DNA from: Candidatus Omnitrophota bacterium
GTDB lineage: Bacteria; Omnitrophota; Gorgyraeia; Gygaellales; Profunditerraquicolaceae
Assembly: GCA_022710715.1 (NCBI GenBank)
Contig: JAKLGJ010000002.1
Span: 234,171-298,170 of the forward strand
DNA length: 64,000 nucleotides
Reading direction: 5' to 3'
Position 1 is the stretch's first letter. Each line of letters starts with the position of its first letter. Positions 8,411 through 30,200 of the stretch are shown here, one piece after another. A program made the translations under genes and the position numbers. The notes beneath the pieces are model-generated. The model was not told where the DNA came from. It did not search any database and saw only the letters and a program-made list of their open reading frames with translations.

Positions 8411-8439
8411 ATTATATAGCAATGCTTAAAATTTGTCAA
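8411..8439 (-). promoter_or_regulatory. consensus sigma70 promoter for the TonB_C-OEP gene (TTGACA - 17 nt - TATAAT on the minus strand).
   Basis: Plus-strand ATTATA 8411-8416 and TGTCAA 8434-8439. Confidence 0.6.
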
Positions 8440-8447
8440 GAGTTATT

Positions 8448-8474
8448 TGATACGGTATCAGTGATACGGTATCA
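8448..8474. promoter_or_regulatory. two tandem 13-bp perfect palindromes, TGATACgGTATCA (8448-8460 and 8462-8474). Candidate dimeric-regulator operator in the divergent promoter region.
   Basis: Direct reading. TGATAC and GTATCA are reverse complements. Confidence 0.55.
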
Positions 8475-8556
8475 ATTGGTATTATCGGCAAACGTGGCAA
8501 TAAAATCAGTTAATTTAAACTTTTTGTTAAAGCAACAAAAATATAGCTCCGCTGCC

Positions 8557-8591
8557 TTGACAGTGCCCTTTCTGTATGTTACATTTTGTGT
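8557..8591 (+). promoter_or_regulatory. sigma70-like promoter (TTGACA 8557-8562, 17 nt, TACATT 8580-8585). It places the TSS at the A of ATG 8592, giving a leaderless mRNA.
   Basis: Spacing read from the sequence. No SD precedes ATG 8592. Confidence 0.45.
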
Positions 8592-8927
8592 ATGGTATGC
8601 AAACTATGCGGTAATGAATTCCAGCCTAGCAAATATCACGCCAATCAACAGGTTTGCGGCAGCGCGGAATGTCAGAAGACGAGGCAGCTGCAGAACCAGA
8701 AGGAATGGCGCCAGCGCAATCCGGATTATTTTAAATGCCTCGGCCAAGAACAGGCTTGGAAAGAGAAGCGCCGGCGTTATAATCGCCTCTGGAAAGTCAC
8801 GCACCAGGATTTCCTCAAGGACTACGATCAAGATCACAAAGAGCAGCGCAGGGAATATATGCGCGGCTACATGCGCCGCTACCGTAGTCAATCGTTAACA
8901 GAGAAAAAAGTTAGTATAATTACTTGA
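8592..8927 (+). CDS. small basic Zn-ribbon protein (MVCKLCGNEF...QVCGSAEC then a Lys/Arg/Gln-rich tail), FmdB-like flavour. Leaderless start.
   Basis: CxxC..CxxxxC ribbon. The track ORF uses TTG 8586; ATG 8592 is preferred. The TGA stop at 8925-8927 overlaps the -35 of the giant-gene promoter. Confidence 0.45.
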   Translation: MVCKLCGNEFQPSKYHANQQVCGSAECQKTRQLQNQKEWRQRNPDYFKCLGQEQAWKEKRRRYNRLWKVTHQDFLKDYDQDHKEQRREYMRGYMRRYRSQSLTEKKVSIIT

Positions 8928-8952
8928 CATAGCCATTATTAACGATTATACT
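8924..8952 (+). promoter_or_regulatory. consensus sigma70 promoter of the giant gene (TTGACA 8924-8929, 17-nt spacer, TATACT 8947-8952).
   Basis: Direct reading. Confidence 0.6.
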
Positions 8953-9015
8953 TTTGGTGGAACTAAGTGCTTTTTTAAATAAATGTAAATTTATAAAAAA
9001 AGTACTTCTTATACG

Positions 9016-9092
9016 AAAAAGGCAAACCAAGAGAAATCTTGGGACGCAAAGCCACGGATCCTCGAGAGAGAAACTTTCAGGATAGCCGAGTT
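9016..9092 (+). ncRNA. candidate c-di-GMP-I (GEMM) riboswitch aptamer. GGCAAACC (9021-9028); P1 6-bp stem with GAAA tetraloop (9027-9042); GGGACGCAAAGCC (9041-9053); P2 (ACGGATCC ... GGATAGCCGAG, to ~9090).
   Basis: Same architecture and near-identical conserved blocks as the Vibrio Vc2 aptamer, as remembered: GGCAAA-CCAUUC-GAAA-GAGUGG-GACGCAAAGCC. Confidence 0.6.
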
Positions 9093-9120
9093 ACCGAAAT
9101 GAGTAGCTCGGCTTTCTTGT
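9084..9120 (+). terminator. intrinsic terminator / expression platform. AGCCGAG-16 nt-CTCGGCT hairpin followed by TTCTTGTTT. Its 5' arm is the 3' arm of riboswitch P2, so the two are mutually exclusive.
   Basis: Inverted repeat 9084-9090 / 9107-9113, then a U-rich tract. Confidence 0.55.
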
Positions 9121-9138
9121 TTAAACGAGGGTAAGCCA

Positions 9139-9237
9139 ATGTATGCCTGGCGAAAAACAATCTGGTTTAAAACAGTAGCCCTGACCATGGTCGGGGTATT
9201 TCTGTTTTCTGAAGTTACCTGGGCTGCCAGGTCAGAT
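9139..9237 (+). other. domain: N-terminal signal peptide / membrane anchor (MYAWRKTIWFKTVALTMVGVFLFSEVTWAARS).
   Basis: Hydrophobic core and AxA-like site. Confidence 0.6.
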
Positions 9238-12200
9238 TACAGATATACTGTTCCCTCGGTACCGTATCAAGGCAACAACCCGCTGCCTACCGCTCCCAAA
9301 TCGGGTCTAAAAGAGACGATATGGCAGATGTTCCAAAAGATATCTACTGCTCTGATTCCGCAAGCTTATGCCTTCGATTTCGGCAGTTCAGGTTCACCTA
9401 CCAGTCTTTCTTCGGGTTCTTCTTCCGGATCGTCTTCTTTAGGTTCATCTTCACTGGGTTCCTCCTCTTCCGGTTCGTCTTATTCGGGTTCTTCAGGTTC
9501 ATTTAGTTTCAGCAATCCGGTCAGCTTTTCATCCGTATCAAGCAAGGGAACCGTATCAACAACCTCCAGCTCGTTATTCTCGAGCTTAAGCCCATCGTCC
9601 TCTTTAAGTTCGACCAGCTCGAACGGGTTAAGTAGCATTAAATTCTCTACGCCAAGCACCACTTCTTCTTTAATTAACTCCGGCTTAAACTATACTCAAA
9701 CCAGCGCCTTTTCCAATAATTACTCCAGCAATGTGCCGAATTCGCAGTCTACGATCAGTCCAAGCTTTTCCTTAAATAATACATATTCTGCCCAAACCGG
9801 AACAAACGCTGGCGCAGTGCAGGCTCCCAGCTTGAATTTCTCTAACAGCAGCCCTAACGCGCAACCGACTGTAACGATGCCGCAGCCTACTGCTTCTGCT
9901 ACTATTCCGGCACCTGCGAATTCCGCGAACAATGTTCAGAGCGTAGAAAGAGGTCAGAATGCGGCTAATGTGACCGGCGCTTCCGTTACCGGAGCCCAGG
10001 CAGCCCAGCAGTATGCTTTAGCGGTGAAATCGCCTGCAGCCACAACCACCGATGCGATGAAGGCTTTGTCTGCTAACGCGCCGGTTAAAGAGAACGCAAT
10101 AGCCAATGTTGTGAATGACACGGTTAATTCTGCCATTACCGGAGTGAAAGAGTTAGTGGCTGAAGCTAAAGATAATGCCCAGGTTTCTATGGAGCAGGCA
10201 TATCAGACTGCAGAAAACGCCAAAAAAGCGTTATTCGATAAATTAAATGATCAGAGTGCAGCTTTTGAGCAGGCTTTTATAGAGCTTAAACAGAATGCCC
10301 AGGACACCACGCAAACGGCTAAAGAGATCGGTAGTCAGCTGATCGCCCAGGCGAATATGAAAGTTCAGGAAACCTTTGCCAGCTTGAGCGAGCAGGTCAA
10401 AAAAGATATGGAGCAGACTTACAGCGTGATGTACCAGGCTATCGCTACTGCGGTAGATGCTTTCAACAACAATATGAAGATGCCTCCGCTGAACCAGGCG
10501 ATTACGCCGATGGCGAATCGTCAGTCTGCAGTCAACGAAGACAGCCAGGCGCAGCTCGACAAGAGCAACCTCGTTTCTACCGTATATGATGCTCTGACCC
10601 AATATGCCCTGGATAATCTCAACGCGACTAAAGCCGAATATCAGGATTTCAGCAATATACTTATTGAGACGGTTTCGAAACAGTATCAGCCTACCGGTCC
10701 TCCGGCGGCGAACACCACTTCTTCCGCCTCTAAAACTCTCGTCGATAACTATATCACCGGCGCTGCCGGCTTGGCCGCTAAATCCACTGAACTGCTTTCC
10801 GCTCTCCAGGAAGCCAGCTCTTACGTCAAAGAATACATTTCCAATTATAAGCTGAATGATTCTCTCACTCTGCATTCAAATGATCCGCCCTGCGGCGCCG
10901 TAGCTCTCGCTCCTATCCTCGGCGTCAATGCCGGCACATTATCCACGGAGTTATCTTCCTCTAATAATAACCAGAATTCCATGTACGAGCTGCAGACCGT
11001 AGCTGCGAATCATGGAACTACCCTTAACGGCAGGAATATTTCCTATACCGATCTGACCCAGATCAGCGGCGAATCCACTATCGCTTATCTGGATATGGGC
11101 AACAATCAGGGCCACTATGTGACCGTGACCGGCGCTACCGCTGATACGGTTACTTATTGCGACGCCACCGGCTGCAATACGGTTTCCAGCGCGCAGTTCC
11201 AGTCCCAGTGGACCGGCGCGGTTCTGACCACCAATAATACGGTCGGCCAGCCTATGCCTGAAGCTACTTTAAGACAGACGTACGGCGGATATGACGTTTT
11301 GGGTACCATTTCTTCCGGCTTGAGCACAGCGGCTGGGATGGTTACGGGAGCAGCTGGAGCGCTCGTAGGCGGTGCAAGCAGCGCTATAAACACAGCTCTT
11401 TCCGGCGGCAGCTTGCCCCAGACCGTGAATAGCGGTATTTCCGGGGCCCAGAGCGGGTATAATACCGGCTATCAGCTGGGAAGCACGGCAGTTAAGAGCG
11501 CTGCCAGCACGCTTTCTTCCGGCGCCAGCTCGTTGTTGAGCCTGGGTTCATCTTCTTCGAGCAGCTCTTCCAGCAGCAGCCTGGCCGCCAGCGTCAATTC
11601 CAATAAGAGCACTTCCGGTTTGAGCCTTCTTTCCAACGGATCTGTACTCAATACCAATCTTTTCAGTTCCGGCAATAAGACTACCACCCAGACTACTTCT
11701 AAAACGGCATCCAGCCCGAGCGCGCTTACCAGCCTGACTACCTGGGTTAACAGCGGTATTCAGACCGTCAAGCAGGTGGGCGGCGATACCGCGAAAGAGA
11801 TCATGAGCCTGGGCGCGGCCGATACCGTTACCTATAATAAGGCGGCTTCTTCTCCGACATTCAGCCAGGTTGCTTTGGATACCGCCAAAGAAGTGGTTTC
11901 GTTTGGACAGGCCAATACCGTTACCTATAATAAGGTTCCTGCGTCCACTTCGCTGGTTGATTCTGCCAAGTCTGGATTGAATACAGTTACTGCTGCCGGC
12001 ACTGGTTTCCTGAAAGTCGGCGCAGGAGAAACTTTGAAAGTTACCGGTTCTGTGGTCGGCATTGCCGATCCGAACCTGGGCAAAACCATTCAGAAAGTCG
12101 GCGATGCGCTGATCGCAGATGGCGTTGCTTCCAGCCCGGCAGTAGAGGTTGTTGTGGAGCATCCGCTGACCCAGTTTATCGGCCAGAACGTGAATAAGCA

Positions 12201-15200
12201 GGTGCAGGCGGCTACCGACGGGACCAGAGCGGCGATTGATACTGCCGCGAAAATGATCGAATACAAAGCAGGCGAAACGATTAAAGATATTGTCGCTCCG
12301 GTAGTGAACATGGTCAGCCCGGATGCCGCCAAAGCTTTCAGCAAAGTCGGCGACGCGCTGACTACTGATGCGCGCAAAAATCCGGTCGTGGAAACCGTGG
12401 CTAAGACCGAAGAAGCCTTCAAGCAGGCAGTGGTTGATCCGATCATCACCACCGCGAGCAAAGCTATTGCTCCGGTTACGGAAACTGTGGCTAAAATCAC
12501 CTCTTCTTTTGCCCAGCCGGCACAGTCGTCCGAAACCCCGGTTATTATCGCGCAGTCCTCCAACACCACTCCCAGCATATTCAGCAAAGAAAATCAGGCT
12601 CAAGTCAAAGCTTTGATCAACGGAGTGAACAGCCCGATCAGCGCGCAGGCGGCGACTACCCCGAATGAAGGTTATACCTTCGTCAGCGGCACTGCGGTCA
12701 ACGGCACTGCCGCCAACCAGGCCGTTTCTCCGGCGTTCAACCAGACCCAGACCACTTCGAGCCCTTCGATTGTGTCTACTATCGCTTCGGCCATTTTCTC
12801 CTCTTCCACCGTGCAGAATCCTGCTACCGGCGCCGCCACCACGACGTACAGCGTCCTGGGCGTTCCGGTGGCTACCTATAATACGCAGACCCAGAGCGGC
12901 ACTATCGGCGTGGGCGCGGTTACTTTCATGAACTACAATTACAATTCCTCAACCGGCGCAGTTACCTATACTTTTGCGCCCGGCATCGAAACCTCCAGAC
13001 TGACCCCTGGGGCTAATGGGTCGGGGACTGCTTCAACGCAGACCCCGGCCCGTTACACTACTTCCGGCAATACCACGCCGGCAGTGGATGGGGCGTCTGT
13101 TAATAAAGAAGTGCAGACCAGCAATCCCGGGCAGCAGGTTGGCTTAACCGCAGGTCTGGCAGCCATGGCTGCGGTGATGGGGCCGTTGGGCGTGGCTTTG
13201 CTCACCGGCGCGAACCTGTATAACGCGGCCCAGGACTGGACTACCGTTTCTAAACCTGCGGCTGCAGATGTGGCTTCTGAAGACGCCAGCAGAGCCGTGC
13301 AGGCTTCCACCGGCAATGCCCAGCAGACCGGTATACTCGATGGGATCAAGACGTGGTTTAATAATACCTTCAATAAGGACAATTCTACGATCCAGCAGGA
13401 TCAGCTGATCAAGGATCAGAATCAGGACAAGCAGGTTTCCAACGGCGGCAATCTTCTGCCGGTCCTGGATAAAATCAATGCCAACGGTCTGCTCAAGAAT
13501 ATGAGCGCCAGCAAGACGCTTCCGGCCGGCGCTCCCGCAGGCGAAGCCGTTGTGCCCGCCGGCACCGGCGCCAACAACCAGACTAACGACGCTAATAACC
13601 CTACCAGCCAGGTTAAGGATACCAATGTGATCAACCAGTTCATTTCCTGGGTCGGCGGATGGTTCACCGATCCCAATTCGAGACGTACTACCGGTGTGGC
13701 TCCGCCGTCCGATAACTCTACTACTTCTTCTAATCAAACCGCATCGACTTCTGCCACCACCGGCACCAATCCTATCGCTAGCTTCTTAGGCAATGTCTTG
13801 TCCGCCTTCACCGGCAAAAATGATAAAGCTCTTGATCTTGATCAAACTGTAAGCAGCGCTTCTTTGATCTTCACTGCCATAGCTCCTCAAATCCCGGCAC
13901 TGGCCGCTATCTTTACCGGCAAGAATCCTACCCAGCCTGTAATGGACGGTATCGGCAAGCTTCTGAATCCCGAAAAACCAACCACTGCGATACCCGCTTT
14001 CAAAGTCAATGACACTCTGCTGCAGCAGTACAAAACCTCCTGGCCCAACGGTTATGGCGCGGCCATGGCTAATGTTACCGCGAATCAGGCCGTTCTTGAC
14101 CAGAAAGCCAAAGCCCTGGACCAGTATTTTACTGCAGTCGAAGAAAATGGCAAAACCTACTTACAGCCTAAACCGAATGTTAACCAGGCTGCCGCTGACC
14201 AGGCATATCAAGAATTTCAAGAGGCCCATACCAATTATCTCAATGCTACCAAAGCGGCCAATATAGGAGAAGACGGAAAGATTACTCCTGAAGCCGCGAA
14301 GGCTCTTAATGATTTCGAAGAGGCCTATGATTATGCATCCTTCACCGTTAATAATGGCCAGGGCGCGCAGACGTACAACTATGTCGGCGTGAATGGGTCG
14401 GTCTACGGCATTGACAGCAGCAAGGTTTACACCACCCAGAAAATCGCGGATAACACCTATTTGCTCCAGGATAACGGTAAGACCGTGTCCATTCTCACTA
14501 CCGATGCCCAGGGCGCTCCGGTCTCCATGATGGCGGTTGCTCCCAATGCGCAAGTCAGCACTGTGAACGGCCAGGTCGTTTTGACCTCCGGGGATAATAA
14601 ATACAAAGCTACGGTCAGCCCGGTGAAGAACGCCGCTGACCAGACCGTGCTCCAGGTTTCTGCCGAAGAATTCAAAACCTCTTTTGCGGATTTCGCCAAG
14701 AGCTGGGTTTTGAATGCCATCGGCGTGGAAAACACCGCTCCGGGTAATTATGAATCTGTGGGCGCGGTGAGTTTCAATGTGGGTTATACTGCACAGCATC
14801 CTACCGGAGAAACCACCTATACCTATGCCACCAGCATGCCGCAGCCGGGCGTTGTGGAATTTATTCAGGGGCTCATTGGTGCAAAGGTAACAAAGCAGGA
14901 TTACGAGTTACGCGCCAAAGATCAGACCATTATTTCAACCGGTACCGATGGTGCGCAGAATTATTCCGCTGCCAGAAAGACGACCCTGCAGGATTATGCG
15001 CAGATGGTGCTCAATCCGGAGGTTGACCCTACCACCAAAGCTATTGTTGCTGATCAGGCGGTTGCCCGCGAATTTACTCCTGCCCCGCTTGATTATCTCT
15101 GGGCATATATGACCAGCGGCGGAAATCCCGCTTTGGCCACTATGCAGGTGATGCAGAAAACCAGCGATAAAATAGAAACATTCGGCGCTTCCCAGGATCC

Positions 15201-18200
15201 TTCCGCAGTGATTATCCGTGATTATCGCCAGAGCGTGGAGTATCAGAAGACCATTCAGACCGACGCGTATAAGAATCTCGACGGTCAGCATATGAACGCT
15301 GCTTTAATTACCCGCACCGGAACAGGTTTATATGCTTTTGACGCGACTGTAGGCGCGGCAGCGTACACATTAGGCCTGAACAACAAATGGAATCAGTATG
15401 TTTCCGCGAATCAGGATAAGCTGGCAAGCGCTGGCATTGCTCCGGTTCAGGAAATATATACCGTGCTTGATCTCGGGTTCGATATCCTGACCGCGCTGGC
15501 CATTGCGGATATTGCAATTCCTGGCGGCGATGAAGCTTTGGTTATGGCCGCAAAAGCAGGATCTAAAGGCAGCCAGCTGGCCGTTGCCCAGACTGCGAAG
15601 ACCGGTTTGGCGCAGACTTTCAAACAGGGATTTAAGACTGCGGTGCGCGGCATGGCTACGGAATATGTCAAGGGCGGCGCGGCATTCGTGGCCCTGGATA
15701 ACGGTATTAATCTGGTGGCCAATCATCGTTTGAGCACTCCGGAAGAGATGGGGCAGTCTTTCAAGAGTGGTGCGACGTTGGCAGGAAGTGTAAATCTTTT
15801 GGTAAAAGGGGTAGGGTATGGGTTGAAATGGAAAACAGGGATTTCCACCGAAACGATTTCAAAAACGTTAAAATGGAATGAAGAGACCGGCAAAGTCGTA
15901 GACCAGGAAGGCCGACTGTTCAATTCTGTATCCGCCGCCGAAGATGTGCTTAAAAGCACAGAAGCAACCAAACTAAGCAAATTGAGCGCTGCCGGAAGAG
16001 TTGCTGGCGGCAGCGTTGTGGAACGTTTGATCCAGACCACTGTAGCTCCGGAACTGGCCTCGGTCAGTCTCAAGCAGATCGGCAACTGGGCAGGCATCGG
16101 CGTAGCGATGAACGTGGTCAGCGCGGGGATTTTCGAACACAGGCTTCCTTCCTTTGATGAAGTAATTGTTTCCGGTCTTTCTACAGCCAAGGATGCTTTC
16201 TGGCTGCAGCCGATGTTAGGCCTGGGCCAGCTCGACCGCGCAGTATTGCCGAAGACCAATATTCTGAATCGCCTGGCTGCAGAAGGTCATAGCGTGTCCA
16301 GCGTAGTGAAATTGAGCAAAACCGGCACAAAGTTCATCGAAGAGGGTGGAAAGAGATTAACTAACGTCGCTAAGCGTATGCCGACAGCCGGTGTTCCCGG
16401 AAAGATCACGCAGAAAGTTCTATTGCCGACAGTTCGCCAGGTTGCGGGCGTGATGGACAACGCCTTCTTTATTGCTCCGTTGCTGGAAGTAGAGAAGAGA
16501 GGGCTGGATGCTATTCCTGGCGTCGACGGAACGACCGCCGATAAAATCGCTTTCCTTTCCCTGTTATTCTTGCCTGCGAAAGTCGGTCTGATTGATTCCG
16601 CCCGCGCCAAGAAGAACGCCGTTGATACCTATCCGGACATTGTTAAATTAGGCAAGGTCGAGACATTCTATCAGGATGGTTTATTGAAGGCTACGACAGA
16701 AGGGAAAGAATATATAGCGAGTTATTTTGAACCGCTCTACAAGTCCGTCGATCCCGATACTCAAATTTCGTCGGCTACTCGCGATGTGGAGACCAACAAC
16801 GGTTATGTCCAGTATAAGAGTTTCAAACTGATCGAAGCCCGGGAAGAAGCAGAGACCGGTGTGCATATCTTTAGAAGCCTGGATGCGATCGGAGTGTTGC
16901 CTAAAGTGGGAAAATCCATTTCGGTGGGGAAGGTTGATTATCTGGGCGATTATACGAAGCTGAAAGATCAGCCTGCCGATGCCCAGATCAATCCGGATAC
17001 CAAAGGCAAAGATATAGTTACTTCTTTTCTGGCATATGAGGACGGACGGGTTATCGGCGAAGCAGAAGCAAGCGTGGCTTCAGCGGTGAAAGGGGTGCAA
17101 AAAGTTCTGCTGGAGCGCTCTTTGAACGGAAAATCGGATACTGATCTTGCTGCTATTGCTGCCGCCGGGAAAGCCGCGCTTGACAACAGGCAGGAGTTTG
17201 ACAGGTTAGAGGATGCTGATATTAAGCTGGTCGCGGACAGAATGCGCGTGGCTTCTTTTGTCACCCTGGATGCCAAAGCGGCACAGGATGTACTGTTTGC
17301 TCTGGCCGTAGACGAGAATAATGCGTTTGCCCAGAAACGGATTGCCGATGAAATTAAGATCCGTCAGAATCCCGCCATTGCCCAGGAATATGAGAAATTT
17401 ATCGAAGCCAGACGTACCGAAAAAGAGAGCAAAACAAAAATCTCTAACGAACGCGCCTTGAGTTTGTTGATTGCTGCGGGGATCGCGCCTGCGCTTATTC
17501 AGAGTTCGAATAGTTATCAGGAGAGGGAAAAAGAGTGGAAAGCCCTGGTTGAGGCAAAGACTTCCCGTTTGACCGACGAAACCAGAAGCAGCATCGAACA
17601 GCTTATCAAAAACGACCCGAGAGTGCTCTTGACTCAACCCAGAAGTTTTGATGCGGTTATGACGCTGCGCGGCTTGAGGGATTCCAGGGATATCGATTGG
17701 AAAGCCGGGATTGTCACGGAGAATGGCGAGGTTGTCGGTTATGATGCGAAGCAGCTTCCGCAGTTGCATAGCGATAAAGAAATCGACGGCGAGCTCAAAG
17801 AGGAAATTCAAGCCAGCATCGATAGATTCGGGGAAACGCTTGACGGCACCACTACCTTTGACTATACCAAGTTAATCAGACAGATCCCGGCGTTGATTAC
17901 GGAGCCGTTGCGCGTGATGGGTGAAAGCAGCGGCAGGCTGGTGGTTACTGACGCCGGCGCTGAACAGGGTAAGAGCGCTCTCGGTATTCCGTCAATCGCG
18001 CGTTATTTCATGCGTCGGGGCATCAAAGGAGCAGGCGTTAATCCTACGGCAGAGCTCGCCCGGCAAGGGTTCGATAAAATGGTGAAGGTCGATGCCACTA
18101 GAGATGAAGCCCAGGTGGAGGTTGGCGGGGAGAAAAAGAACGTTCGCATCCTGACCAATGACGATACCAAAGATCCTCTTGCCTTGCTCAAATTTGTGGA

Positions 18201-21200
18201 AGACGCTGATTTTCTTTACTACGATCTGGCAACCTACATGAATCTGCGTTTGCGCGCCAAAGATAATCCGGATTATCTGCCCGTGGTCAAGGCTCTGGAG
18301 AACCGCGATTTTACTCTGCTCGATGAAGTGCAGGATTTGATTTCCGCTGCTCCGCATATCGTCGGCTACGACAACAACAAATTGACCCAGGAGCAAAAAG
18401 ACGCGAATAGCAAGCTCCTCAAAGATCTTTTGCCGGCAATGTGGGGGTTGGCCGGCAAGGCCAAAACAAGCGGGTTTACCCCTAAATTCATTGAGGCCAT
18501 TATTGAAAAAGGAAATGACGAATGGCAGGGTATCGCAGAATGGAGCGGTAAAGAGCCCGGCAAGGGTGTTCTGGAGCCGACAGAGAAATTTTTCAACATT
18601 CCGGGTATGGAGGCTTACCGTGACAATACCCAGATGAAAAAACTTGTTTACGGTATGTTCGAAGCGCTGGGAGGCAAAGGCGGCAACGCCATGTCTTTGA
18701 AAGACGGTAAAGTGTATCCTAATCATAACGGCTACCTGCATGAAGATATGCATTTCCAGAGCGTGGAAAGATCCGTAGCCTACCAGATATTCGGACGTCT
18801 GGCTTTAGAGAACGGCAATGCCGCCGCACACTATAAGAACCTGGGAGATAGCAAGTATCTCGATGCCGAACTGGACAAAGTTGATGTCAGCGACAAATCT
18901 TTACAGACTGTGGCTCTGGAGTTATTCGTCAACCTCAAATCACCACTGAAACTTTCTTTCTCTGCTACGCCGGAAAGCATTATTGGTTTAAGCGAAGTCA
19001 TGGGCGTAACTTTGGCTAAAACGCGGGCAGTTGAGGTGGAAGGCGGAGAAGTGCGTATCGAAACCACTGCATCCCCTGTTCTTAACGTCGATAAATTAGC
19101 TGCCAATTTGGCCGGAGAAGTGAAAGCTTTCTGGGACAGCGGCCGTATGGAGATTAAGTCCACCCGCGACCTCGACCAGATCACCCAGAGGATAAAAGAA
19201 TCGCACGATGCTAATAAGCCTGCAGAGCTAAGGAAGCAAGTCACGATCATCGTAGCCATTGACGGCAATCATTACGATCAGATCGTAAGAATGGCCACTG
19301 AAGCCGGCGTCCCTGTTTATAGCATGGTTGCCGAGAATGGCATATTTAAACAGCTTGATGCAGTCAAGTGGGAAAATGCCGCAGTCAAGAACGGCGAGCG
19401 CGTTAGTCAGGATGATTTGGTTAAGCGCATGAAGACGGGCGATGAAATGGTGGTGCTCTATAACCGCCCGCATTTTCAGGGTATTGATAAATTTGTTCCG
19501 GATAAGCGTGCGGACGACAAGACAATGCTTTCTCGCGAGTGGATTGTGATCGCCGATCGCTCGACCACTTTGAAGAAGCTGGCACAGGCCATTAGAAGGC
19601 CGCGTCTGGATGTGAAGAATGAAGCAATCCCGATGGAGCTCTGGCTGCTGGGCAACGGCAAGGAATTTACCGTTAACCAGGCGTTGGATCAGTTCACCCG
19701 GAATGAAATCCAGGAACTTAATGACCTGCGTTTCAAGACGTTGCATGAAGGAGCGGTTATGGGCTATGACCGCGCTTTCAGCGAAGCTTATGATCGCGCC
19801 GAGAGCGCTGCAGAGAAAGAAGCTATCATTAACGCCTGGAGAGAATATTATTCCAAGACTTCTACGCAGGACAGTATTACCAAGAAACAGGATATCCAGG
19901 CGGATCAATTGTTGCAGTCGCAGCTGACCAGCGCTTCCTCCAGGTTTATTGAAGTGTTTGGTGATGACTTCACGTTTAAGGCAAGCCTCAAGCCTGCGGC
20001 GCTGGAAGTGATCGAAGATTATCTGCTTCAGGCGAACGCCATCAAGTCGGGCGTTACTTTCAGAGGCGATGATGTGGCTCTGGCGGATTTCGTCCGCGAG
20101 AATATCGGCTTGGCTAATTTGCGGCCGGCAGATTACATCAAGGTGATCGAGGGCGCGTATAAAGCCGAGGATCTGGCTAAGCTGGAAGTTTCCACCAAGC
20201 GCACCGGCACGCCGGCAGCGGAAGTGGCGGCTCGTGAAGGGGTGAAGATTCTTTCCCAGGCCAAGGCCGAAGGGCGGGATATTACTGCCGGCGAGCTTTC
20301 TACCGAATTGACGCCGGTGCTGCGCGATGCGGGATTTTCCGCCAAGGATATTCGCAGCGGTATCATGGCGTTATTCGGCATACTCTTCAAGGAAAAGGAT
20401 GCCGCCAAGAATAACGATGACCTGGATAAAGTCATCATGGAATCGAAACATGCCATGACCGACGGTCTGAAAGTGTGGGCGAACAGAGCGGATCCGGCGA
20501 ATATTTACGGCAGCAAATCGACCATGACCACTTTTGGCAAAACCGTGATCGATGCCGAGAATTTGATCAATGGCGAAGAGGACAGCCTGTTGATCTTGAC
20601 TGCGGCGGTACATAACATGCCGGAAGGCGCGAAGAAGACCGAAGCGACCAAGCTCCTGGCCGAATTGGTCCAGAATAATCAGGGCACTTTTGCCAGCTAT
20701 CCGAACTGGATGAGTCTGCATACTCTTGGCGTGATGGATGCTTCAGTGATTTCTTCGCTTATCGGTCTTTACGGCATCTTCAAGGATGACGACACCGGTT
20801 CCGCGTCCCCCTATGTGGATACTTTCAAGGATCTGAATAAAGTCTCGGGAGTCGCATTGAAAGATGTTATCGGGGTGGAAGCCGGCGCTGCCGAACAGAC
20901 GTTGTTGAGCATGGTCAAGAATATCGCCGCGCCTGCGTTCGCCAAAGCCGGATTCGACATGCCGGATTTCGCAGGTATGGATACCGCCAACCAGATGCGG
21001 CGGATCAATAACGCGCTGGACATTCTGGAGCTGGGTATCGAGAACTTCCGCACTTTCTCGCCGGCGATCAGCGGTCTGAAAGGTCTGAATGAGAATAATG
21101 ATATCCTGTTCACTTTGACTTCTCCGCTGAATAATCGGCTGTTCGTTCTGGCCGATGCGCTGGCTCGCGTTGACGTGGAACCGCAGGTGCTCAAGACGTA

Positions 21201-24200
21201 TCTGGATAGCTTTAATAATCTTCCTGAAGCGGAGCGGATGAATCGTCCTCCGATCGAGATCGCCACCCTGTCCGGCCTGGACGGCAGCGTTGGCTCAACC
21301 ATCCGCAGGCTGGATATGGAAATCTCGATGACTGCGGACGCTTCCCGCAAGCAAATGCTCCAGAATGCCCGCAATACGCTGGCGACCACTTTGATTGAAT
21401 ATAACGCCAAGAATATGGCGGAAAAGAACCAGGATAAAGATTTCGATATGGAAAAAGAATTCAAGGATAAATGGACTCTCGTAACCGATCTGATGGAACA
21501 GGATGGCGCTTTCGACAATAAGGCTGCCGGCCTGGCGTCACTTATGGGTGCTTTCTACCCGGCCAGGGACATTTCTACTCCGCAGCTGTTGTTCAAACAG
21601 ATTTACGATACCGCAGAAAAAGCCGGTAAGAATGCCTACGATATGATCGCTGGCTCCGAGGTTCGCATTAACAACCTGTACCGTTCGAATAAAGAAGACG
21701 GGGACCAGTTAAAAGGATTATTCCTGCAGATCGGCAAGCAGGTGAACAATGACAACAGCTTTAAGCTTCCCGAAGAATTCGTGAATATTGGTGAGGATGG
21801 CATTGCCAGGATTAACGAAGCGCAGGAACGGGAAGGCAAAACCGCGCTGGATGCCAAGACGCTTGGTCTTGGCAGCACCGCCGCCAAAAAGGTCCTGGGC
21901 GGATTGTTCGAACATCCGCTGTATAAATTTGCGCAGCAGACCGGCGACGCGGATTTTGCCCGGCAGACCCTGAACAACCTGATGATCGCCAGCTACGGCT
22001 ATACACCGGAAATTTATTCCTTCGACACTATCCTGAATCAAGAGAAGATGGGTTGCGTTATGTATTCTTTGACCAACTATATCGGTATGAGGCTGAATGG
22101 CATCGCGGATGAAGATATCGTGATCAGCCGTCTGGAATCCAGCCGGAACTCCTACAGCCACGTTGTGGCAGGCAACATCTACGAACGCAATGCGGAGAAT
22201 CCCGATGATTATAAAGCCACCTATTATGATCCTACTCCGTTAGGAGTAAGACGCGGACTGAAAGTCGCCCTGGATTTCGGTCAGCTGGCTAAAGATTCCT
22301 CCGCCCCGGATAAATTTGCCCTCAAGGGTCTCAACACCGGCAACGCCTATTTCGATACCTATGATACCATTCGGCATATTTCCAACGGCAAAGGTCCGGA
22401 TGGTCTTTTTGCCGCGATCCTGCGCAACCGTCCGGCAATCATGGAGAATTACCATGCTCTGCAGGCCGCCACACAGCTTGATCCTTATGACATGGGCGCA
22501 AAGAGGAAGTTCGACAAGGTCAACGCGCCGGTAGAGCAATTCAACAGGGTATTGCAGGGTGCTGTGAATAAAGCGAAGGCAGAGGCTGCGGCAGCTGCCG
22601 CAGAATCAACCGAAGCGCAAGATTCCAAGTCTGGTGAGACGCCCGTACCTTCATCCTCCTCGGGGACCCCCGGCTCACCGGCTGTTAACAACGCTAACGC
22701 CGGCAACAGCAACGAAGAAAACGCCGTCGTTACCGATACCGATAGGGGCAACGCTCCTCAAGCAGTCAGCGGAGCAACTGAAGCAGATGTCACTCCTGCC
22801 GCAGAAGAAATCGGCAGCTCACATAATCGCGGTCCTCCGGCAACTGAAACCACTACTTCTTCTGAATCAGAGAATGCAGTGAAGAATGCAGAAGATGAAG
22901 AAAATGACGGAGGTAAGAAATGGTCAAATTCACTTATCAAGAACTCCAGATCAACCATCTGGTCAGCTTCAAGCAGGACGACAGCATACTCGCAGCGTGC
23001 CGAGAGAACGGCAAATCGCGCTTATTCATGGCTTTCCCGGACAGGGTTTACGTCCATACCGCAGGCAATTGGGAACTTCTCGAGGAGACCGCAAGCACGG
23101 ACATCCTTAGCCGGATCCAGCAAGCGGTCCAGCGCGGCATCACTATCTTCCATCTCGACAGCAGCGTCGCGGTCACGCAAGGAAGATTTAACAACTAGCA
23201 GGAAAGTTTCAGCAACCGGCTTCATACCTTTCATAAAGAATCTCTTCCGCGTTGGCGCGTATGTCGCCAACGTGTTGACGGTCATATATACGAAGTTCAC
23301 CGAGCTGCCCATATCCCTATCCACCGTGGCTGGTAGGAGAGAGATTACCGGGCAGCTCATTAATTTTAACGGCCTTAGACAGACTCTCGATCATGCTTCA
23401 CTTTCCGTGGCTGGTGAGGGGCATAGATTTATCGAGAACACTGCTAAGGCCGTGACTATTTTCGTGCAATCACTTCGGCTGCCTGTTGCACTGCTTTCCG
23501 TGGCTGGCAGGCACTTTGCGCAGGCAGCCGGTAGATTTGGCTCCAGATCAAGCGAAATCAAAGCTTCACCTTCCGTGGCTGGTGGGGAGCAAAAGATTAC
23601 CGCTTCTGGAGCCTCTTATTCTTGGTCCGGGTTCAGCCCTGATTATGCATCACTTTCCGTGGCTGGTGAGGGGTATAATTTTGCGGCTTCCCGGACCTCT
23701 TTGGATTATTTTGGGCTGCCTGCATCTCTATCTACCGTGGCTGGTGGAGACGTGCAGGCGGCCTTTACCTTTGGCTCCGGCTTCAATTATCAATTCGCTT
23801 CATCTTCCGTGGCTGGTGAGGGGCAGATTGATGAAGCCGGAGCTTTTGATTCCAACGCGTTCCTGGGTCGGAACGCACAACCGGCTGTCCTGACGTTCAC
23901 CCGGGCGGGTGACGCAGTACAGACGGACAGAACTGTTGTTATGGGCGGCGAAAAAAGAGTCCCTACCTCCGGGAAATCTGACCCCTCTTTGAGTAGTCGC
24001 CCTAACAACGAAATCGGAGGTGTCACATGGTCAAGGTCAACGGGAACTGGATCGAGCTCAAACACCTGGTCGTATTCGACAACGGCAGCAAAATCTTCGC
24101 AGCAGGAAGAGAATGCAGCAGCAACAGCAGAAAACAGCTTCGCTTATTCCTTATCAACGAGCATACCGGCGAGATATTCTCTCGTAACGGCAGAGCAGAA

Positions 24201-27200
24201 TCATGGGAACTGGTCAGCGATTCCGCAATCCGCGACAACATCTCCGGAACCGTCTACAGCGCTTACCAGACCCGCAACATCCCGGTCTACAGGATCCACG
24301 GCGAATTCAACGCATAATATCGGCGGCGCCTTCTTCAGCGCAGCCGCGATGGCGCCTCTAAGCATGACGGTGGTGAATCCTGAAGCAATCACTAACGCAG
24401 GCAACGTAGGGATTGTCGGATTCATCACCATGATCGGCGCGTTCACCTTATCCATACTGTTGAGCGCGCATAAGGACAGCGTCACGGTGATCAGAGCCGG
24501 ATTGATCAGCCTGGCCGCAACCGGGGTTGTTGTGGCCGTGCTGATGTTCGGCAATATCGATCTTGCCGGGATCGCGAGCTACCTGGCGGATTCAGCCGTT
24601 TCCGTCATTTCCAGCCTGCCGGCTGTTCTGGGCGTGGTCGGTTTCGCCGGTAAACCGTCATTCGACAAGGAACTTGACGGCGGCAGATCGCAGAAGCTGT
24701 TCGCGAAGATGACCATTCTCGGGCAGAAGATATTCGAGGCGTTGCAAAAACTGTGGCGTTACGGCGCAGTGGTGGCTATGTTCGGCACCCAGGAAAGCTT
24801 CGATTTGAGAGAAGTTTCCGTGATCCCCGTGGAAGCGAGACGCCGGCAGGAGAACGAATTCGGCGACGGCGGAAGACACGGGAATACCCACAGCGACCCG
24901 TTACGCGCCGTGATCAATGATCCCAGCTTGATGGGCGTAAAGATCAGGGGGAGAGAAGATGATTACGCGAGGATCTTTGCTCTGAAAATCGACATGGCGC
25001 TGGATGCTTTGAAGAAAAACATCGCGCCCCGTACCGCGCTGGTGATCGGCCCCGGTTCTACTGTGGTGGAGCCGCAGACGCTGGCAGCCAGATTCCCGTC
25101 GCTGGCAGATATTTACATGGTAGAGCGTGCGCCTATGAATCTGTCGCTTCTGGGTAAGCAGTATCTCGAGGCATTCGGCGAGTCCACCGCGCGGATACAT
25201 CTTATATACGGAGATGTCCGTTCCTTGCCTTTCGCGGATGACTCGATCGACCTGGCAGTCGGATTCAAGGTTCTGGTCGGCGAAATTTTCAGGGAGGAAG
25301 ACGACCTGCGCTCCGCCTGGAAAGAAACGGAACGGGTTTTGAGCAGCGAGGGGACCGGCATTGTCTATCAGACCCGCTTCCCGGATTTCGAACAGAGAGC
25401 AACGTTCAAATATTTGCAGCTCACGCTTTCTTTAGGACCGGAGCAAGCGAGCTTTAAGCAGCGTATTGCTTACCGCGCGCAGCTGGATGCGCCTGAACTC
25501 AACAGCTGGGCCGGCGACCATATCGGCGATATCGTGGTCTGGACCAAGGCAGAGGACGGCGGCAGAAAACTGACCGACGATGAAGCGATCGCTATTGTCA
25601 GGCAAGCGTACGCCTCCAGAGGGATTTATTTCGAAAAATTAAGCGGCAATGACGCGCAGGAGATTCTCGCGGCAGCGGTTAAGCAGGCGCAGGCAAGAGC
25701 CGACACTATGGCGAATCCGCAGGAGCAGAGCGAATCGCTGCCGGGGCTGTACCGCCGGGCGAATCAGGCTTTGCTGGTCCTGGTGCCGCTCGGATTGATC
25801 GGCCTGGGCGGGGTGATGGCGAAGGATCAACTGCATTTCGCCGAAGAGGGCGATATCGCCAAAGATATCGTCAAAGCTATTTACGCCGTCAGCGCGATCA
25901 ACGACCAGATCAACGAATTCAATCCGCTCATCGCTTCTGCGGCAGTCACCGGTCATCACATCGAATTGGGGAAAAATCCCCGCTGGGAATCATATTCCTG
26001 GGATCTGGATCAGACCACTGATGTCCGGACCCGAGAAGAAATAGTGGTCAAGCTGGATAATAACCAGGCAGGCAATAAAATCGTGGTCCAGTTATATGAC
26101 ATCAACACCCTGGATGACGAAAGCCGGGGTCGTTCCAGCGCGATTGTATTGAACGAGACCGGGGTCCAGGAAGTCCGCGTGCCCATCGACAGTATCATGG
26201 GAGCCAATCGAACCATTATCCGCAGGATCGGCGTGCATGTGGGCCGCGAAGTCTGGGGTCAGGATAACAATCCTGCGACTGCCAGGATCACCGTGCTGGA
26301 CATTGATCTCGCCGGAGAGCGGCCGCTGCCCGGAACCGGCGCGCCTTCAGTCATCCCCGGGTTCGGGCTCTGGGAAGTGTTCGGCGCTTTGATTGCCGCA
26401 ACCGGCATCATTCATTTACGCAAAATTATCTTCACCAGCCCGCAGGAAGATATCGTCAGAACAACCTTAACTGAAGGAGCTGTAGATATCCGCGGGCCTC
26501 CGTCTTCCGACACCGAAACCGATCCGGATGGCGGTAAAGTCACCGCGCGTGACGTCGCAGCCAATGCCGTTATCTTCGGACTCGGGGCTGGAATAATTTC
26601 ACTGATCGTGTCTTTCTTCGGATTGCCTCTGATCGCAGGTTCAGGCGTAGTCGTCTTAGCCACTCTGGCCATAATCGCCGTGGCCTTCGGCGCTTACTGG
26701 TTATTCACCACCAGACTGAATTCCGAGACCACCCAGACCTTTAACCAGGCGTTGAATAAGGCCCTGGAAGCCAACGAAAAATATCAGAAGCTGGATTCGA
26801 AAGAACAATCCAGGATCCGCACTCTGGTCAGAAGAGCCAAAAACGCGCTCTTCATCAAAGATCAGCAGCTGGCTTTCTCCCCGGCAGCCAAATTTCTGTC
26901 CAATCGCGATATCAAAACCGGACGCCTCGCCGGTTACGCTGTTTCCGCAATCGATGCCGTGTTCCAGGTCGTATTCATGCTGGTGCTGTATACCTTCCTG
27001 CTCAAGCATTACCTGGTGCCTTCGGCCCAGGCGATCAACGCGTTTTCCTCCATGATTCCCGAGGATACGCTTGACGCCATGGTCAAAGATGCCATTCGCG
27101 ACCTCAAGGAAAGCCAGCAGCTTTCCCCGGCTATGCAGAAAGCGGTCACCGCCAAAGACATCCTCACCTTAAAAGTACTCTTCGATTACATGGATGAACA

Positions 27201-30200
27201 GATCGATCATTTCGGCGAGCTGACCGTCGAGAATAAACTGTATATCGTTCCGCTGGCTTATTTCGTAGGCGCCAAAGCGTTCTTCTCTCTGGTAACCCAG
27301 AGAATCGTGATCGCCATCGCTTCCGGCTATATCGCCGGTATCCTGCTGCCTCTGGCTATTCCCGCATCTATTCTGACTACGGAACTCTGGTCTACGATGC
27401 TTCCGCTGTCCATCAAATTTACCGTCACGCCGTATCTGATCCTGAACAGCTTTATCGTCATCTATCTATTGAGCCTGCAGCAGCTCTGGGATGCCAACCT
27501 GCCGTTGGTGCGCGCTTTTGAAGCCGGCAGGATCACCGGATTGAGAATGCTTGGCCTGGCCCTGATCAATTCCGCGATCATCCTGATCCCGGGCACAATT
27601 TCGATGATGCTGGTTTCCGCGGAAATCGAAGCCGCTTTAAAAATAAGCGCTCCGTTCCCGTTTCTCAGAGATGCCATGAAATGGATGGAAGAGATTATTT
27701 ACGGCGCCAACGGCAGGACCGGTCTTGGCCAGGCGATCCTGGTGAAGGTAGGCGATTTCCTGGGCATCCAGCTGGTGCCGACGGTCTATGATCCTCTTGC
27801 CGCGGCACTGGGCCGGCCGGATTACCAGACTACCGGAGTATTGATGAATCTGTATACCGGCCAGCAGGCTGCCCAGAAAGCCGGCGATCCGCTGAAAGTT
27901 TCGTTGCTCAACGCGCTTATCCGCGGCGTCGAATCCGGCGATATCAAATTCTCGATCGATAATCCGCTGATTCCCAGCGCCGCCGCCGCCGAGATCACCG
28001 ATGCGAATGTGCTGAAGACCGTAACCTTGCCCCAGACCATCGATGTGGCGGCTGCCGAGAAGTTCATTGCCAACTCCAAAGGCGAATACGGCCTGTATGC
28101 CAGCCATAACGGCGAGAAGGCGGCATATACCTATGATCAGGCGCTGGTGGTGATGACCTTTATCGCCAAGGGCGACGAAGCCAATGCCCGGGCATTGCTG
28201 GATATTTACGCGAATAAAATTCCGAAACACGCCAGCTCCCTGTATTACAACGGTTATTACGCCGACAGCCAGTCCTATGCCGTTCAGGAAGGCATCGTGC
28301 ATGTCGGACCGAACGCCTGGATGGCCCTGGCTATGGCCCAGTACGACACCCGTTTCAACAGCGATCGGTATACCGGAAACATCAAAGGGATTGCCGACGC
28401 GATCAAACTTTACCAGAGACCCAACGGCAGTATTTACGGGGGTCCCACTGTCAGTTGGGTCTCTACCGAACATAACCTGGACGCCTTCGTCCTGTATAAT
28501 TACCTGGCCACCACTTCCGGCGAGGCCAAGTATGTTGAAGCCCGCGACAAAGTCGAGAACTGGCTGCTTACCGAAGCTTACTCCAACGGTTCGTTCTTGA
28601 GAGGCCAGAACGACAATATATTCGCCACCGACACCCAGGCCTGGGGCGCTTCGATTCCTGAATTACCGCAGCAGGTCGATCGCCAGGCATTGCTGGCTTC
28701 CGCCGAGCAGAATGCTCAAGTGACCGTTACCTTCAACGGAAAACAGGTGACCGGATTCGATTACGACCGCAGCTCGCAGCAGGGTACGCCGGTGATGGTC
28801 ACTCCGGAATGGACCAGTGAAATGGTCATTGCCTACGCTATCAACGGCCAGCAGGCCAAGGCCGAAGCGACTTTGAAAGAACTGGCTAAACTGCAGCTGG
28901 CTAACGGCGGATTCCCCTATGCCACCCAGGCGGGCGCCGACACCGGCCACGGCTGGAAGACTCCCGGAACCGGCGGTTCCTTAGCCGGCACCACCTACGC
29001 GATCATGGCCCAGAAAGTATTCAATCCGTTCGACATTTCCGGCACGAGCGTTCCCGCTACTGCGCAGCCTTCTCCTGTGACGACTCCTGTGACGACTCCG
29101 GTGACGGTAACTCCGGTAATCACCGCGCCGGAAACTACCGCGCAGCCTGTTCCGTTCACCACTTTGCCGGTGCCCTTCGTCAACGGCACAATCAATGTTA
29201 CGACCAACTGGACGTTCGTCAATCAAACCGTCAACGGGACCGAGATCAGAGGGCCTCCGGCGTTCAACATTACCGCGAACCAGACTGCTACCAACGCCAC
29301 TTCTTTCGCGCAGGCCGTGTTTACCGACGCGCTGAACGTACATCCGAACGCATTAAGGATCGACCCGGCCGCCGTAGCCAATCTTACCGTTCCCGATGTC
29401 TACACCTTTGCCAACAGCAAGGACATGCTGGTCAGCTTCGACGCCGACCGTACCGACGCAAACACCACCTATATTTATTCCGTAACTCCCGTAGCCAAAG
29501 CGCAGGCCCTGGCGCTGCTGACCGAAAAAGCCAATGCCGCTGCTACTCCGGAAGAACGCCAGTCCTACGAAACCAGGATCGCAGCCTACAACCAGGATTA
29601 CGGCTATACCCTGACGCCGGTGGCCGAGAAATCCTCTTACTCCTCCCAGACTTTCTACAATCTGGACCAGGGCATGTATGTGCTGGAAGTCTGGAAAACC
29701 GGCGTGGATCTTACCGATAAAGACAGTGAAGTCGCTTCTCTGGAACGGGTCACCCAGCCGGTGCTGGTGGATGTGGTTATCGATACCGCCAACCGCTTCC
29801 CGGCCCTGACTACCCACGTGGGGTATCCGGCGGGCGACGGATTCGGCGGCGCCACCGTGGAGAAGATCCTTGAAGTCAACCCCGAGACCAACCTCAAGAC
29901 TACCCGCGACCTGTATACAGTCAGCAGCAACGCGGTGAAACTGAACTTCGATTTCGCCGGCATCAAGGACGGCACTAAGGCCGCAGCGTTGAAGAAAGAT
30001 ATCGCCGGGATGATCGTGCTGCGCACCGATACCGGCACCAGCCGCATCGAATCGTTCGCCGTGCCCAAGTCCGATGCCGCGCAGGTCTATCCTTTCGAAT
30101 TCGTGGATACCACCACAGAAACCGGGCATACCTATGAATATACCGCTTATGTCTACGGCAACAATTACACCAGCAGCGAGGAATCCGAGCCGGTGCTGGT

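Follow-up and report, generated by a model that had tools for sequence, protein, structure and literature searches.

A giant gene of the Archaeovorin type in an Omnitrophota bacterium is probably controlled by a canonical class-I c-di-GMP riboswitch in its leader, acting as a transcriptional ON switch. The window analysed here is the whole 64-kb stretch of DNA (64,000 nt), and the giant gene begins in it at ATG 9139. The leader contains an aptamer of the c-di-GMP-I family with the canonical ligand-contact nucleotides, the aptamer fold overlaps a terminator fold with which it competes energetically, and this design is conserved in diverged relatives. The features of the locus are given below, all on the forward (+) strand.

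8904..8915, +, conserved A-tract/GTTAGT block just 5′ of the −35 box, possibly an UP-element-like or factor-binding site
8924..8952, +, predicted sigma-70-type promoter of the giant gene: −35 TTGACA at 8924-8929, 17-nt spacer, −10 TATACT at 8947-8952
8965..9007, +, AT-rich hairpin in the 5′ leader, between the putative transcription start and the aptamer (RNAfold)
9012..9099, +, c-di-GMP-I (GEMM-I) aptamer (full-length Rfam match, 71.6 bits, E 5.5e-15)
9012/9014/9015 with 9099/9096/9095, +, pairs of P1, three only
9021-9028, +, GGCAAACC block (sequence)
9022-9047, +, P2, with GAAA loop at 9033-9036 (Rfam alignment)
loop at 9033-9036, +, 6-bp hairpin CCAAGA/UCUUGG with GAAA cap (sequence)
9041-9053, +, GGGACGCAAAGCC block (sequence)
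9050-9092, +, P3 (Rfam alignment)
9021, 9045, 9048, 9085, 9094, +, key nucleotides G9021 (G20), C9045 (C44), A9048 (A47), G9085 (G83), and C9094 (C92)
9084..9113, +, predicted intrinsic-terminator hairpin, 11 bp with an 8-nt loop (terminator scan)
9114..9123, +, U-rich tract UUCUUGUUUA directly after the terminator stem (sequence, terminator scan)
9127..9131, +, Shine-Dalgarno (SD) sequence GAGGG, 7 nt 5′ of the start codon (sequence)
9139..64000, +, beginning of the giant ORF, with no stop up to the window end, at least 18,287 aa

The giant gene and its divergent neighbour

The giant reading frame starts at ATG 9139, the start codon given in the first-pass annotation of this DNA, and runs without a stop to the end of the window. 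Its product is called at 54,149 aa on the ENA contig ERZ761563 NODE_5 (591,376 nt), which was located by an exact match of the upstream 158-aa ORF. Two other assemblies (L124 and L125) place the gene start exactly at 9139, and the start is also backed by the conserved N-terminus M-x-x-W-R in the orthologs. The N-terminal part of the protein comprises a signal-peptide-like N-terminus and a Ser-rich region, and a Peptidase_C39 domain lies at aa 580-700. Further domains in the first 18,287 aa are methyltransferase, NUDIX, cytidine and adenosine deaminase, LpxC, formyltransferase, PPDK_N/PEP-utilizers, AAA, PGI, and SIS; no GGDEF or HEAT domain was seen in this part of the protein. The divergent neighbour encodes an unusual fusion of a TolC-like OEP domain with TonB_C, and this protein is 100% identical to an NCBI protein of 'Candidatus Omnitrophota bacterium'.

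Archaeovorins have a C39 domain near an N-terminal signal peptide, together with methyltransferases, NUDIX, and PPDK_N, and within the PVC group products of >30,000 aa are found in Omnitrophota only (bioRxiv 10.1101/2023.11.21.568195). The gene studied here combines Omnitrophota origin, a product of >30,000 aa, a signal-peptide-like N-terminus with C39, and the methyltransferase, NUDIX, and PPDK_N domains. The earlier description was of a giant surface or envelope gene; the product is more aptly called an Archaeovorin-type multi-enzyme giant protein than a simple adhesin.

Promoter and leader

The promoter proposed in the first-pass annotation is present as TTGACA-17-TATACT at 8924-8952, with an 11/12 match in a consensus scan. 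Both hexamers are kept in the diverged loci L127-L134, with spacers that vary. Transcription would begin at about 8959. In the conserved block just upstream of the −35 box, a AAAAGTTAGT-like sequence is found at the same offset in all orthologous leaders, while the adjacent bases are variable. By RNAfold, the region 8958-9012 folds with −12.8 kcal/mol, and the sequence of the AT-rich hairpin that it contains (8965-9007) is not conserved in the orthologs. The 121-nt leader as a whole has a folding z = −4.1 vs dinucleotide shuffles. The SD at 9127-9131, the counterparts of which are purine-rich in the orthologs, is unpaired in the aptamer fold and in the terminator fold alike, and translational control was set aside because of this. 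A second terminator-like hairpin at 9178-9197, within the conserved signal-peptide coding sequence, is probably incidental.

Aptamer match and architecture

Class membership was judged by a covariance-model match at or above the curated gathering score, in Rfam clan CL00126, which includes RF01051. A check of the GEMM-I assignment with Infernal had been suggested, and it gave a match in the c-di-GMP-I clan: the sequence 9012-9099 matches RF03167 over positions 1-80 of the 80 in the model, with 71.6 bits against a gathering score of 59 (E 5.5e-15). This is the sole Rfam match at the gathering threshold in the 64-kb window (Rfam 15). A second member of CL00126 is also above its own threshold at the same site, and it was suppressed for overlap only. 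The aptamer at 9012-9099 belongs to the class by this test. It had been placed at 9016 before; the match begins four bases earlier, and the expression platform extends to about 9123.

Every sequence block quoted in the first-pass annotation could be located in the window, including ACGGAUCC and GGAUAGCCGAG in the leader in addition to the two blocks listed above. The 6-bp, GAAA-capped P1 and the adjoining P2 that were described there are also present, and they are P2 and P3 in the nomenclature of the crystal structure. C9045 is found in a GAC bulge of P2 and G9085 in an AG bulge of P3. The GAAA loop at 9033-9036 has GNRA counterparts on P2 in most orthologs; in type 1 GEMM RNAs, a GNRA loop of this kind docks into a P3 receptor. 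The statement that the layout equals that of Vc2 is only approximately right: no classical 11-nt tetraloop receptor is visible in P3, which is a plain extended helix. P3 also contains a C-A mismatch (C9053/A9089), which is shared by 5 of the 8 orthologous leaders and also turns up in unrelated genomes. Because of this mismatch, the three-pair P1, and the lack of a visible receptor, the affinity of the aptamer could be low.

The predicted terminator and the competing folds

The hairpin reported previously, with AGCCGAG at 9084-9090, 16 nt, and CUCGGCU at 9107-9113 followed by UUCUUGUUUA, is indeed there, and its stem extends to 11 bp with an 8-nt loop. The terminator scan gives the stem at 9084-9113, with 6 G-C pairs of the 11, and then TTCTTGTTTA. 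This is a G+C-rich hairpin with a U-tract that shares its 5′ arm with an aptamer helix. The arm, 9084-9094, is composed of the AG bulge including the G83-equivalent, the P3 3′ strand 9086-9092, A9093, and C9094, and the terminator loop spans the P1 3′ strand. Since the 5′ arm is made of the P3 3′ strand and the ligand-contacting C, the ligand-bound aptamer and the terminator cannot coexist.

The Rfam pairs were mapped onto the sequence, and nascent transcripts and the full leader were folded under constraints. For the nascent transcripts 1-88 and 1-91 nt, ending at 9099 and 9102, the unconstrained MFE structure is the Rfam P2 + P3, at −22.9 kcal/mol. In the full leader, the terminator state has −37.6 kcal/mol vs −17.3 kcal/mol for the aptamer fold, a preference of about 20 kcal/mol for the terminator; folded alone, the terminator hairpin has −17.3 kcal/mol. 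The pair probability in the full leader is 0.98 for the terminator vs 0.0003 for P1 and lower P3. The mutual exclusion that had been put forward for checking is thus supported by constraint folding as a competition between the P3 3′ strand and the terminator. The layout is predicted by this modelling to be that of a classical kinetic ON switch, with default termination, and with read-through if the ligand locks the aptamer ahead of the emergence of the terminator 3′ arm.

The proposed mechanism is as follows. Transcription from the conserved sigma-70-type promoter would produce the aptamer, which could then fold into P2 and P3. Binding of c-di-GMP at the three-way junction (G9021, A9048, and C9094) would lock P1 and lower P3, and the locked aptamer would withhold 9084-9094 from the terminator 3′ arm at 9103-9113, so that the polymerase would read into the ~163-kb gene. 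If the ligand is lacking, the far more stable terminator hairpin would form, and transcription would stop at the U-tract. We infer both termination in this organism and the direction of the regulation in vivo from this arrangement of the leader.

It is conceivable, but unlikely, that c-di-GMP is bound and acts by another route or in the other direction, through mRNA stability or processing, Rho, or translation, or as an OFF switch. Such behaviour has precedents among class-I riboswitches: Vc2 is described as an off-switch via RNA stability (bioRxiv 10.1101/617340), and dual regulation is described for Bc1 (PMC11218506). Moreover, terminator function in Omnitrophota is at the stage of prediction. 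Against this, the 5′ arm of the terminator combines the P3 3′ strand with the ligand-contacting C, making the folds mutually exclusive, and this overlap and the U-tract are found in 8/8 orthologous leaders and in 7/8 paralogous leaders with a collapsed P2 (described below). The unpaired SD in either fold also argues against the translational route. An ON switch by anti-termination is the reading that we prefer.

Conservation among relatives

A search of genome contigs with the N-terminus of the giant protein found no relatives, and the only homolog recovered when aa 250-1000 served as a protein query was P0001. When the C39 region alone was the query, there was no match; P0001 aligns there at 87% identity, so this result is a prefilter false negative and was not counted as absence. 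A strict metagenome pattern for the exact aptamer subtype gave 0 matches. In the close relatives (L001 and L122-L125), the leader hardly differs, and they are too close to the window for covariation. The aptamer of L001 has two substitutions, at 9020 in J1/2 and at 9069 in the P3 loop, both of them unpaired positions, and a 26-nt deletion in L001 takes out most of the U-tract, the SD, and the start codon.

Diverged relatives were reached via the TolC+TonB_C protein as a synteny anchor. This protein has 73 homologs with 35-61% identity and the same domain fusion. Eight syntenic loci were fetched. In 8/8 of them a small ORF lies divergently before the anchor gene, and in most a very large gene comes next, truncated where the contig stops; the longest product called is 13,049 aa. 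The same gene layout is found with a ninth homolog, P0006. The giant-gene leader has an aptamer above the gathering score in six of the eight diverged loci (L127, L128, L129, L131, L132, and L134). In L130 and L133, there are decayed aptamer remnants, which are still recognisable, so that the control is dispensable in some lineages.

Eight leaders were compared, those of the window, L001, and the six aptamer-bearing loci. The GCCGRGUUAC/GUAAYYCGGYU hairpin, the U-tract, a purine-rich SD, and the M-x-x-W-R start are kept in 8/8, and the sharing of the P3 3′ strand with the terminator, first noted in the window, is a design that the seven other orthologous leaders retain. When the aptamer structure is placed on the alignment, 89.7% is paired. 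In P2, all 6 of 6 pairs have changed on both sides, 97.8% of the cells are paired, and 0/500 shuffles reach the covariation seen. Lower P3 is almost invariant and for this reason uninformative on covariation, and P1 was poorly aligned by MAFFT because J1/2 differs in length. For the terminator, 94.3% of the cells are paired across the 8 leaders vs 23-55% in slid registers. Most of the changes replace G-C by G-U, on the free 3′ arm. The covariation is not significant (172/500 shuffles), as the 5′ arm is also constrained by the aptamer. On the alignment, what is conserved for the terminator is its pairing, as opposed to statistical covariation. The presence of the element in several diverged lineages suggests that control by a riboswitch is the general rule for this locus family.

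These comparisons also bear on whether the leader still senses anything. It might be a former riboswitch that is now a constitutive attenuator or a leader structure only, and the C-A mismatch in P3, the weak P1, and the remnants in L130 and L133, which show that decay occurs in this locus family, would be in keeping with that. We regard this as very unlikely, since all of the conserved junction and ligand-contact nucleotides are intact and the score is well over the gathering threshold. Furthermore, the leader is identical in four independent assemblies, both of the L001 aptamer substitutions (9020 and 9069) fall at unpaired positions, and the pairing of P2 is maintained across lineages by compensatory changes.

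Further aptamers and collapsed-P2 elements

The syntenic loci have more aptamers before neighbouring genes, with four in 14 kb in L129 and seven in L137. In the window, a permissive scan found two sub-threshold GEMM-like elements on the minus strand, at 4279-4176 with 25.8 bits and at 338-242 with 28.5 bits. Reading of the sequence added a third on that strand, at about 6312-6165, which is not reported by Rfam. Each of the three is located in the leader of a minus-strand gene. Delimited as collapsed-P2 elements, they span 6312-6165, 4293-4147, and 336-214. In all three, P2 is collapsed: they cleanly lack the GC/AAA and GAC/GC parts, and the G83-equivalent as well, but retain the counterparts of G20, A47, and C92 and a terminator that overlaps. 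There are at least 8 such elements across the window, L127, L128, L130, and L134, the sequence of the P2 helix differs in each, and all but one of eight have the terminator. Judged from these sequences, the collapsed-P2 elements look like a maintained structural variant, not decay.

A wider interpretation, which we offer tentatively and would put at somewhat under even chances, is that a multi-riboswitch c-di-GMP regulon, conserved across Omnitrophota, comprises the giant gene together with its divergent neighbours. It would include a hitherto undescribed collapsed-P2 derivative of GEMM-I, with P2a, the internal loop, and both nucleotides of the interhelical C-G pair deleted, which escapes Rfam at its gathering scores. 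Should the collapsed-P2 RNAs have kept the ability to sense c-di-GMP or a related dinucleotide, they would represent a new class of structural variant, and c-di-GMP would be the master switch for the deployment of the largest known bacterial proteins.

Ligand class and the RF03167 label

The best-scoring Rfam family for the window and for L001 is not RF01051 but RF03167, the orphan variant c-di-GMP-I-GGC. The label matters because the GGC variant may have another ligand. The diagnostic position of this variant was derived by comparing the consensus lines of the two families, GACGCGAAg in RF03167 vs GACGCAAAg in RF01051, in which G vs A is the only strongly conserved difference. The site is the first junction base after P2, A47 of Vc2, and the window has A9048 there in place of the diagnostic G. 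The other departure from the RF03167 consensus is A9093, the base before the junction C. Among canonical-core aptamers this base is freely A or G, and the RF01051 consensus shows it as a lower-case g; for these reasons it has no diagnostic value.

We asked how the label is distributed among RNAs with the canonical base. A genome scan with a pattern allowing A or G at the diagnostic site gave 127 matches, and 127 of them have A. Nineteen of these loci, from many phyla and chosen for the canonical A47 core, were run through Rfam, and of the 20 aptamer hits in them, 14 are labelled RF03167 (62-79 bits) and 6 RF01051; 17 same-clan hits were suppressed among these loci. RNAs with G fixed at the A47 site are rare: the JGI metagenome collection yielded 14. 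These true G47 RNAs score 59-76.5 bits on RF03167, the same range as the canonical A47 RNAs, so the score does not discriminate between them. The RF03167 label reflects the scaffold, mainly a short P3 that lacks the 11-nt receptor, rather than the binding pocket, and it should not count as evidence for a variant ligand pocket. Identity with the GGC variant was rejected on the diagnostic nucleotide A9048. That the leader belongs to an orphan c-di-GMP-I-GGC class with an altered pocket for another signalling molecule, leaving the giant gene outside c-di-GMP control, is hardly credible: RF03167 is the top family for the window and L001, but the window carries A9048, 14/20 hits in A47-selected loci receive the same non-discriminating label, and the orthologous leaders L132 and L134 are labelled RF01051.

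In Vc2, G20, A47, and C92 are reported to contact c-di-GMP, and conservation of the interhelical C-G pair is universal (PMC4744006, PMC5888326). The equivalents of G20, A47, C92, and both nucleotides of the C44-G83 pair are all present at the aligned positions of the window, and c-di-GMP is the predicted ligand since all of these are canonical. We also considered the c-AMP-GMP riboswitch (GEMM-Ib), a class cited in PMC7266159. This identity was rejected because the window has G9021, and G is found in all orthologs. An A at the G20 position reportedly marks GEMM-Ib, in work ascribed to Kellenberger and to Nelson in 2015. From its nucleotides, the aptamer is predicted to be a canonical c-di-GMP-I aptamer with c-di-GMP as its ligand.

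Implications for giant-gene expression

Both the RNA class and the type of platform are known; it is the giant-gene context that is new. The word 'riboswitch' does not occur in the 2023 giant-gene preprint (bioRxiv 10.1101/2023.11.21.568195) or in a 2026 Omnitrophota preprint, and searches of the full-text literature found nothing relevant on Omnitrophota with riboswitch or on Velamenicoccus archaeovorus with c-di-GMP. This is the first predicted on/off control for an Omnitrophota giant gene, here one for a protein of ~54,000 residues. The Omnitrophota giant genes, whose products run to tens of thousands of residues, occur in uncultured hosts and have been implicated in predation or episymbiosis.

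At the elongation rates usual in bacteria, one transcript of ~163 kb would take on the order of an hour. Since each transcript is such an investment of time, a default-off, c-di-GMP-activated gate before the gene would be a sensible commitment checkpoint. The default-off gate is a concrete regulatory hypothesis that is cheaply testable in vitro. Near the giant genes of Omnitrophota, pilZ genes are usually found downstream and GGDEF domains often inside (bioRxiv 10.1101/2023.11.21.568195), and the predicted gate ties in with both.

Comparison with known systems

The closest functional parallel is Bc2, the leader of cap, a collagen adhesion protein gene of Bacillus thuringiensis BMB171, which was shown experimentally to be a c-di-GMP-I ON switch by anti-termination (PMC4933901). 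The ON-switch logic of the first-pass annotation agrees with this system. In both, a class-I aptamer precedes the gene for a very large protein, secreted or at the surface, and an intrinsic terminator adjoins the ORF; in the repression/de-repression model of Bc2, the ligand brings about an anti-terminator and switches the gene ON. The differences are the Firmicute host of Bc2 and its A at the G20-equivalent, where the window has G. In addition, the mechanism is experimental for Bc2, whereas it is predicted for the window, and the gene of the window, which is of another kind, exceeds cap in size by over an order of magnitude.

Vc2, the leader of Vibrio cholerae tfoY and the crystallised reference, shares with the window the three-helix junction, G20/A47/C92, C44-G83, and the GAAA tetraloop of P2. 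It has a tetraloop receptor in a longer P3, whereas P3 in the window is plain and extended, and it is reported as an OFF switch acting on RNA stability, in contrast to the terminator platform of the window. RF03167 (c-di-GMP-I-GGC), the top model for the window, has the same overall scaffold with a short P3 that lacks the 11-nt receptor, but the diagnostic G of the variant at A47 is replaced by A9048 in the window.

The gene itself resembles the Archaeovorin genes (West-Roberts et al. 2023, bioRxiv 10.1101/2023.11.21.568195) in its Omnitrophota host, its product of >30,000 aa, its signal peptide-like N-terminus, and its C39, methyltransferase, NUDIX, and PPDK_N domains. A link of these genes with c-di-GMP was already noted there via PilZ and GGDEF, and the RNA-level control predicted in the window would be an additional one.

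Results and Discussion

Three GEMM-I-like elements were found on the minus strand of the window, and elements of the same design recur among the eight diverged syntenic loci (L127–L134) that were reached through the neighbouring TolC+TonB_C protein.

GEMM-I-like elements with a collapsed P2
Window, about 6312–6165, minus strand: leader element upstream of ORF 4754–6154; no Rfam match
Window, 4293–4147, minus strand: leader element upstream of ORF 2507–4135; Rfam match at 4279–4176, 25.8 bits
Window, 336–214, minus strand: leader element upstream of a signal-peptide ORF starting near 186; Rfam match at 338–242, 28.5 bits
L127, 10469–10593: element in a diverged syntenic locus
L128, 9598–9739: element in a diverged syntenic locus
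L130, 8644–8760: element in a diverged syntenic locus
L134, 8038–8150 and 8379–8546: two elements in a diverged syntenic locus

The genes behind all three window elements are on the minus strand, and both Rfam scores in the window are under the gathering score. In all three window elements P2 is collapsed, with the P2a helix, the internal loop and the two nucleotides of the interhelical C-G pair all absent. The equivalents of the ligand contacts G20, A47 and C92 are retained, and a terminator overlaps the 3′ strand of P3. The sequence of the P2 helix differs in each of the elements from the syntenic loci, and an overlapping terminator is present in seven of the eight elements, those of the window included. 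This recurrence in diverged loci with differing P2 sequences, nearly always with the terminator, suggests that the collapsed-P2 design is being maintained as a structural variant of GEMM-I, one missed by Rfam at its thresholds.

Further c-di-GMP-I aptamers, scoring above the gathering score, are also found in these loci, where they precede genes downstream of the TolC/TonB gene.

Additional c-di-GMP-I aptamers
L127: 7958–8111
L128: 7953–8047
L129: 8131–8226, 9601–9773 and 12325–12416
L133: 8352–8457

The entire neighbourhood of the giant gene looks like a multi-riboswitch c-di-GMP regulon.

The aptamer in the leader of the giant gene itself has decayed in two syntenic loci, and further features lie around it in the window.

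Features of the giant-gene leader and its surroundings
Window, 8439–8411, minus strand: sigma-70 promoter, TTGACA-17-TATAAT, a perfect 12/12 consensus
Window, 8904–8915: conserved AAAAGTTAGT block, roughly 10 nt 5′ of the −35 box that serves the giant gene
Window, 8965–9007: AT-rich hairpin of 12+6 bp (−12.8 kcal/mol), lying after the inferred TSS and ahead of the aptamer
Window, 9178–9197: second terminator-like hairpin, GCCCTGACCATGGTCGGGGT then ATTTCTGTTT, within the signal-peptide coding region
L130, 5279–5440, minus strand: decayed leader aptamer remnant
L133, 4960–5300, minus strand: decayed leader aptamer remnant

The AAAAGTTAGT block stands at the equivalent position in all orthologs (L127–L134) and may act as an UP element or bind a regulator. 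No sequence conservation of the AT-rich hairpin was found among the orthologs. The minus-strand promoter is directed at the divergent TolC+TonB_C gene and overlaps the start of a 158-aa ORF (8422–8898), which gave no match in a Pfam search and has a positionally conserved counterpart of 98–146 aa in the syntenic loci. The hairpin at 9178–9197 overlaps Met17 of the giant ORF and is probably just a by-product of the coding sequence.

The L133 leader retains P3 and the terminator, with repeated AAGCCACGGATT units in place of the P2 half. In L130 just a P2-like hairpin and the 5′ strand of P3 remain and the terminator is absent. In the closest relative (L001, GCA_025490955.1), a 26-nt deletion at about 3826, equivalent to 9116–9141 of the window, takes out the start codon and the SD along with most of the U-tract, and the giant ORF is broken after 706 aa by a frame change at 5985–5991 of that locus. 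These lesions could reflect assembly error, strain variation or pseudogenisation.

The giant ORF (9139–64000) chains cytoplasmic-type enzyme domains: LpxC, PPDK_N with a PEP-utilizers domain, formyltransferase, cytidine and adenosine deaminases, PGI, SIS, NUDIX and methyltransferases. Its first 18,287 aa showed no GGDEF domain. A protein search with the C39 region alone returned 0 homologs, yet P0001, a homolog of the N-terminal part of the giant protein, is 87% identical across that region, so negatives from a word-prefiltered search do not mean absence.

Among the aptamer loci from the pattern scans (L003–L121, L135–L148), Rfam clan competition names most short-P3 canonical (A47) aptamers 'c-di-GMP-I-GGC' (RF03167 rather than RF01051), with complete overlap between the bit scores of the A47 (62–79) and G47 (59–76.5) RNAs. 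Automated annotations of the GGC variant therefore cannot be relied on without a check of the diagnostic base. A true G47 aptamer is found at 2523–2610 of L137 (JGI Ga0209515_10000418), where seven aptamer matches, located at 2523–9021, fall inside 13.8 kb. Its terminator overlap, GCCGAGCUACC/GGUAGCUCGGC, matches that of other leaders, and the ORF that follows extends past the end of the locus; because of this shared arrangement, G47 and A47 aptamers may coexist in similar contexts.
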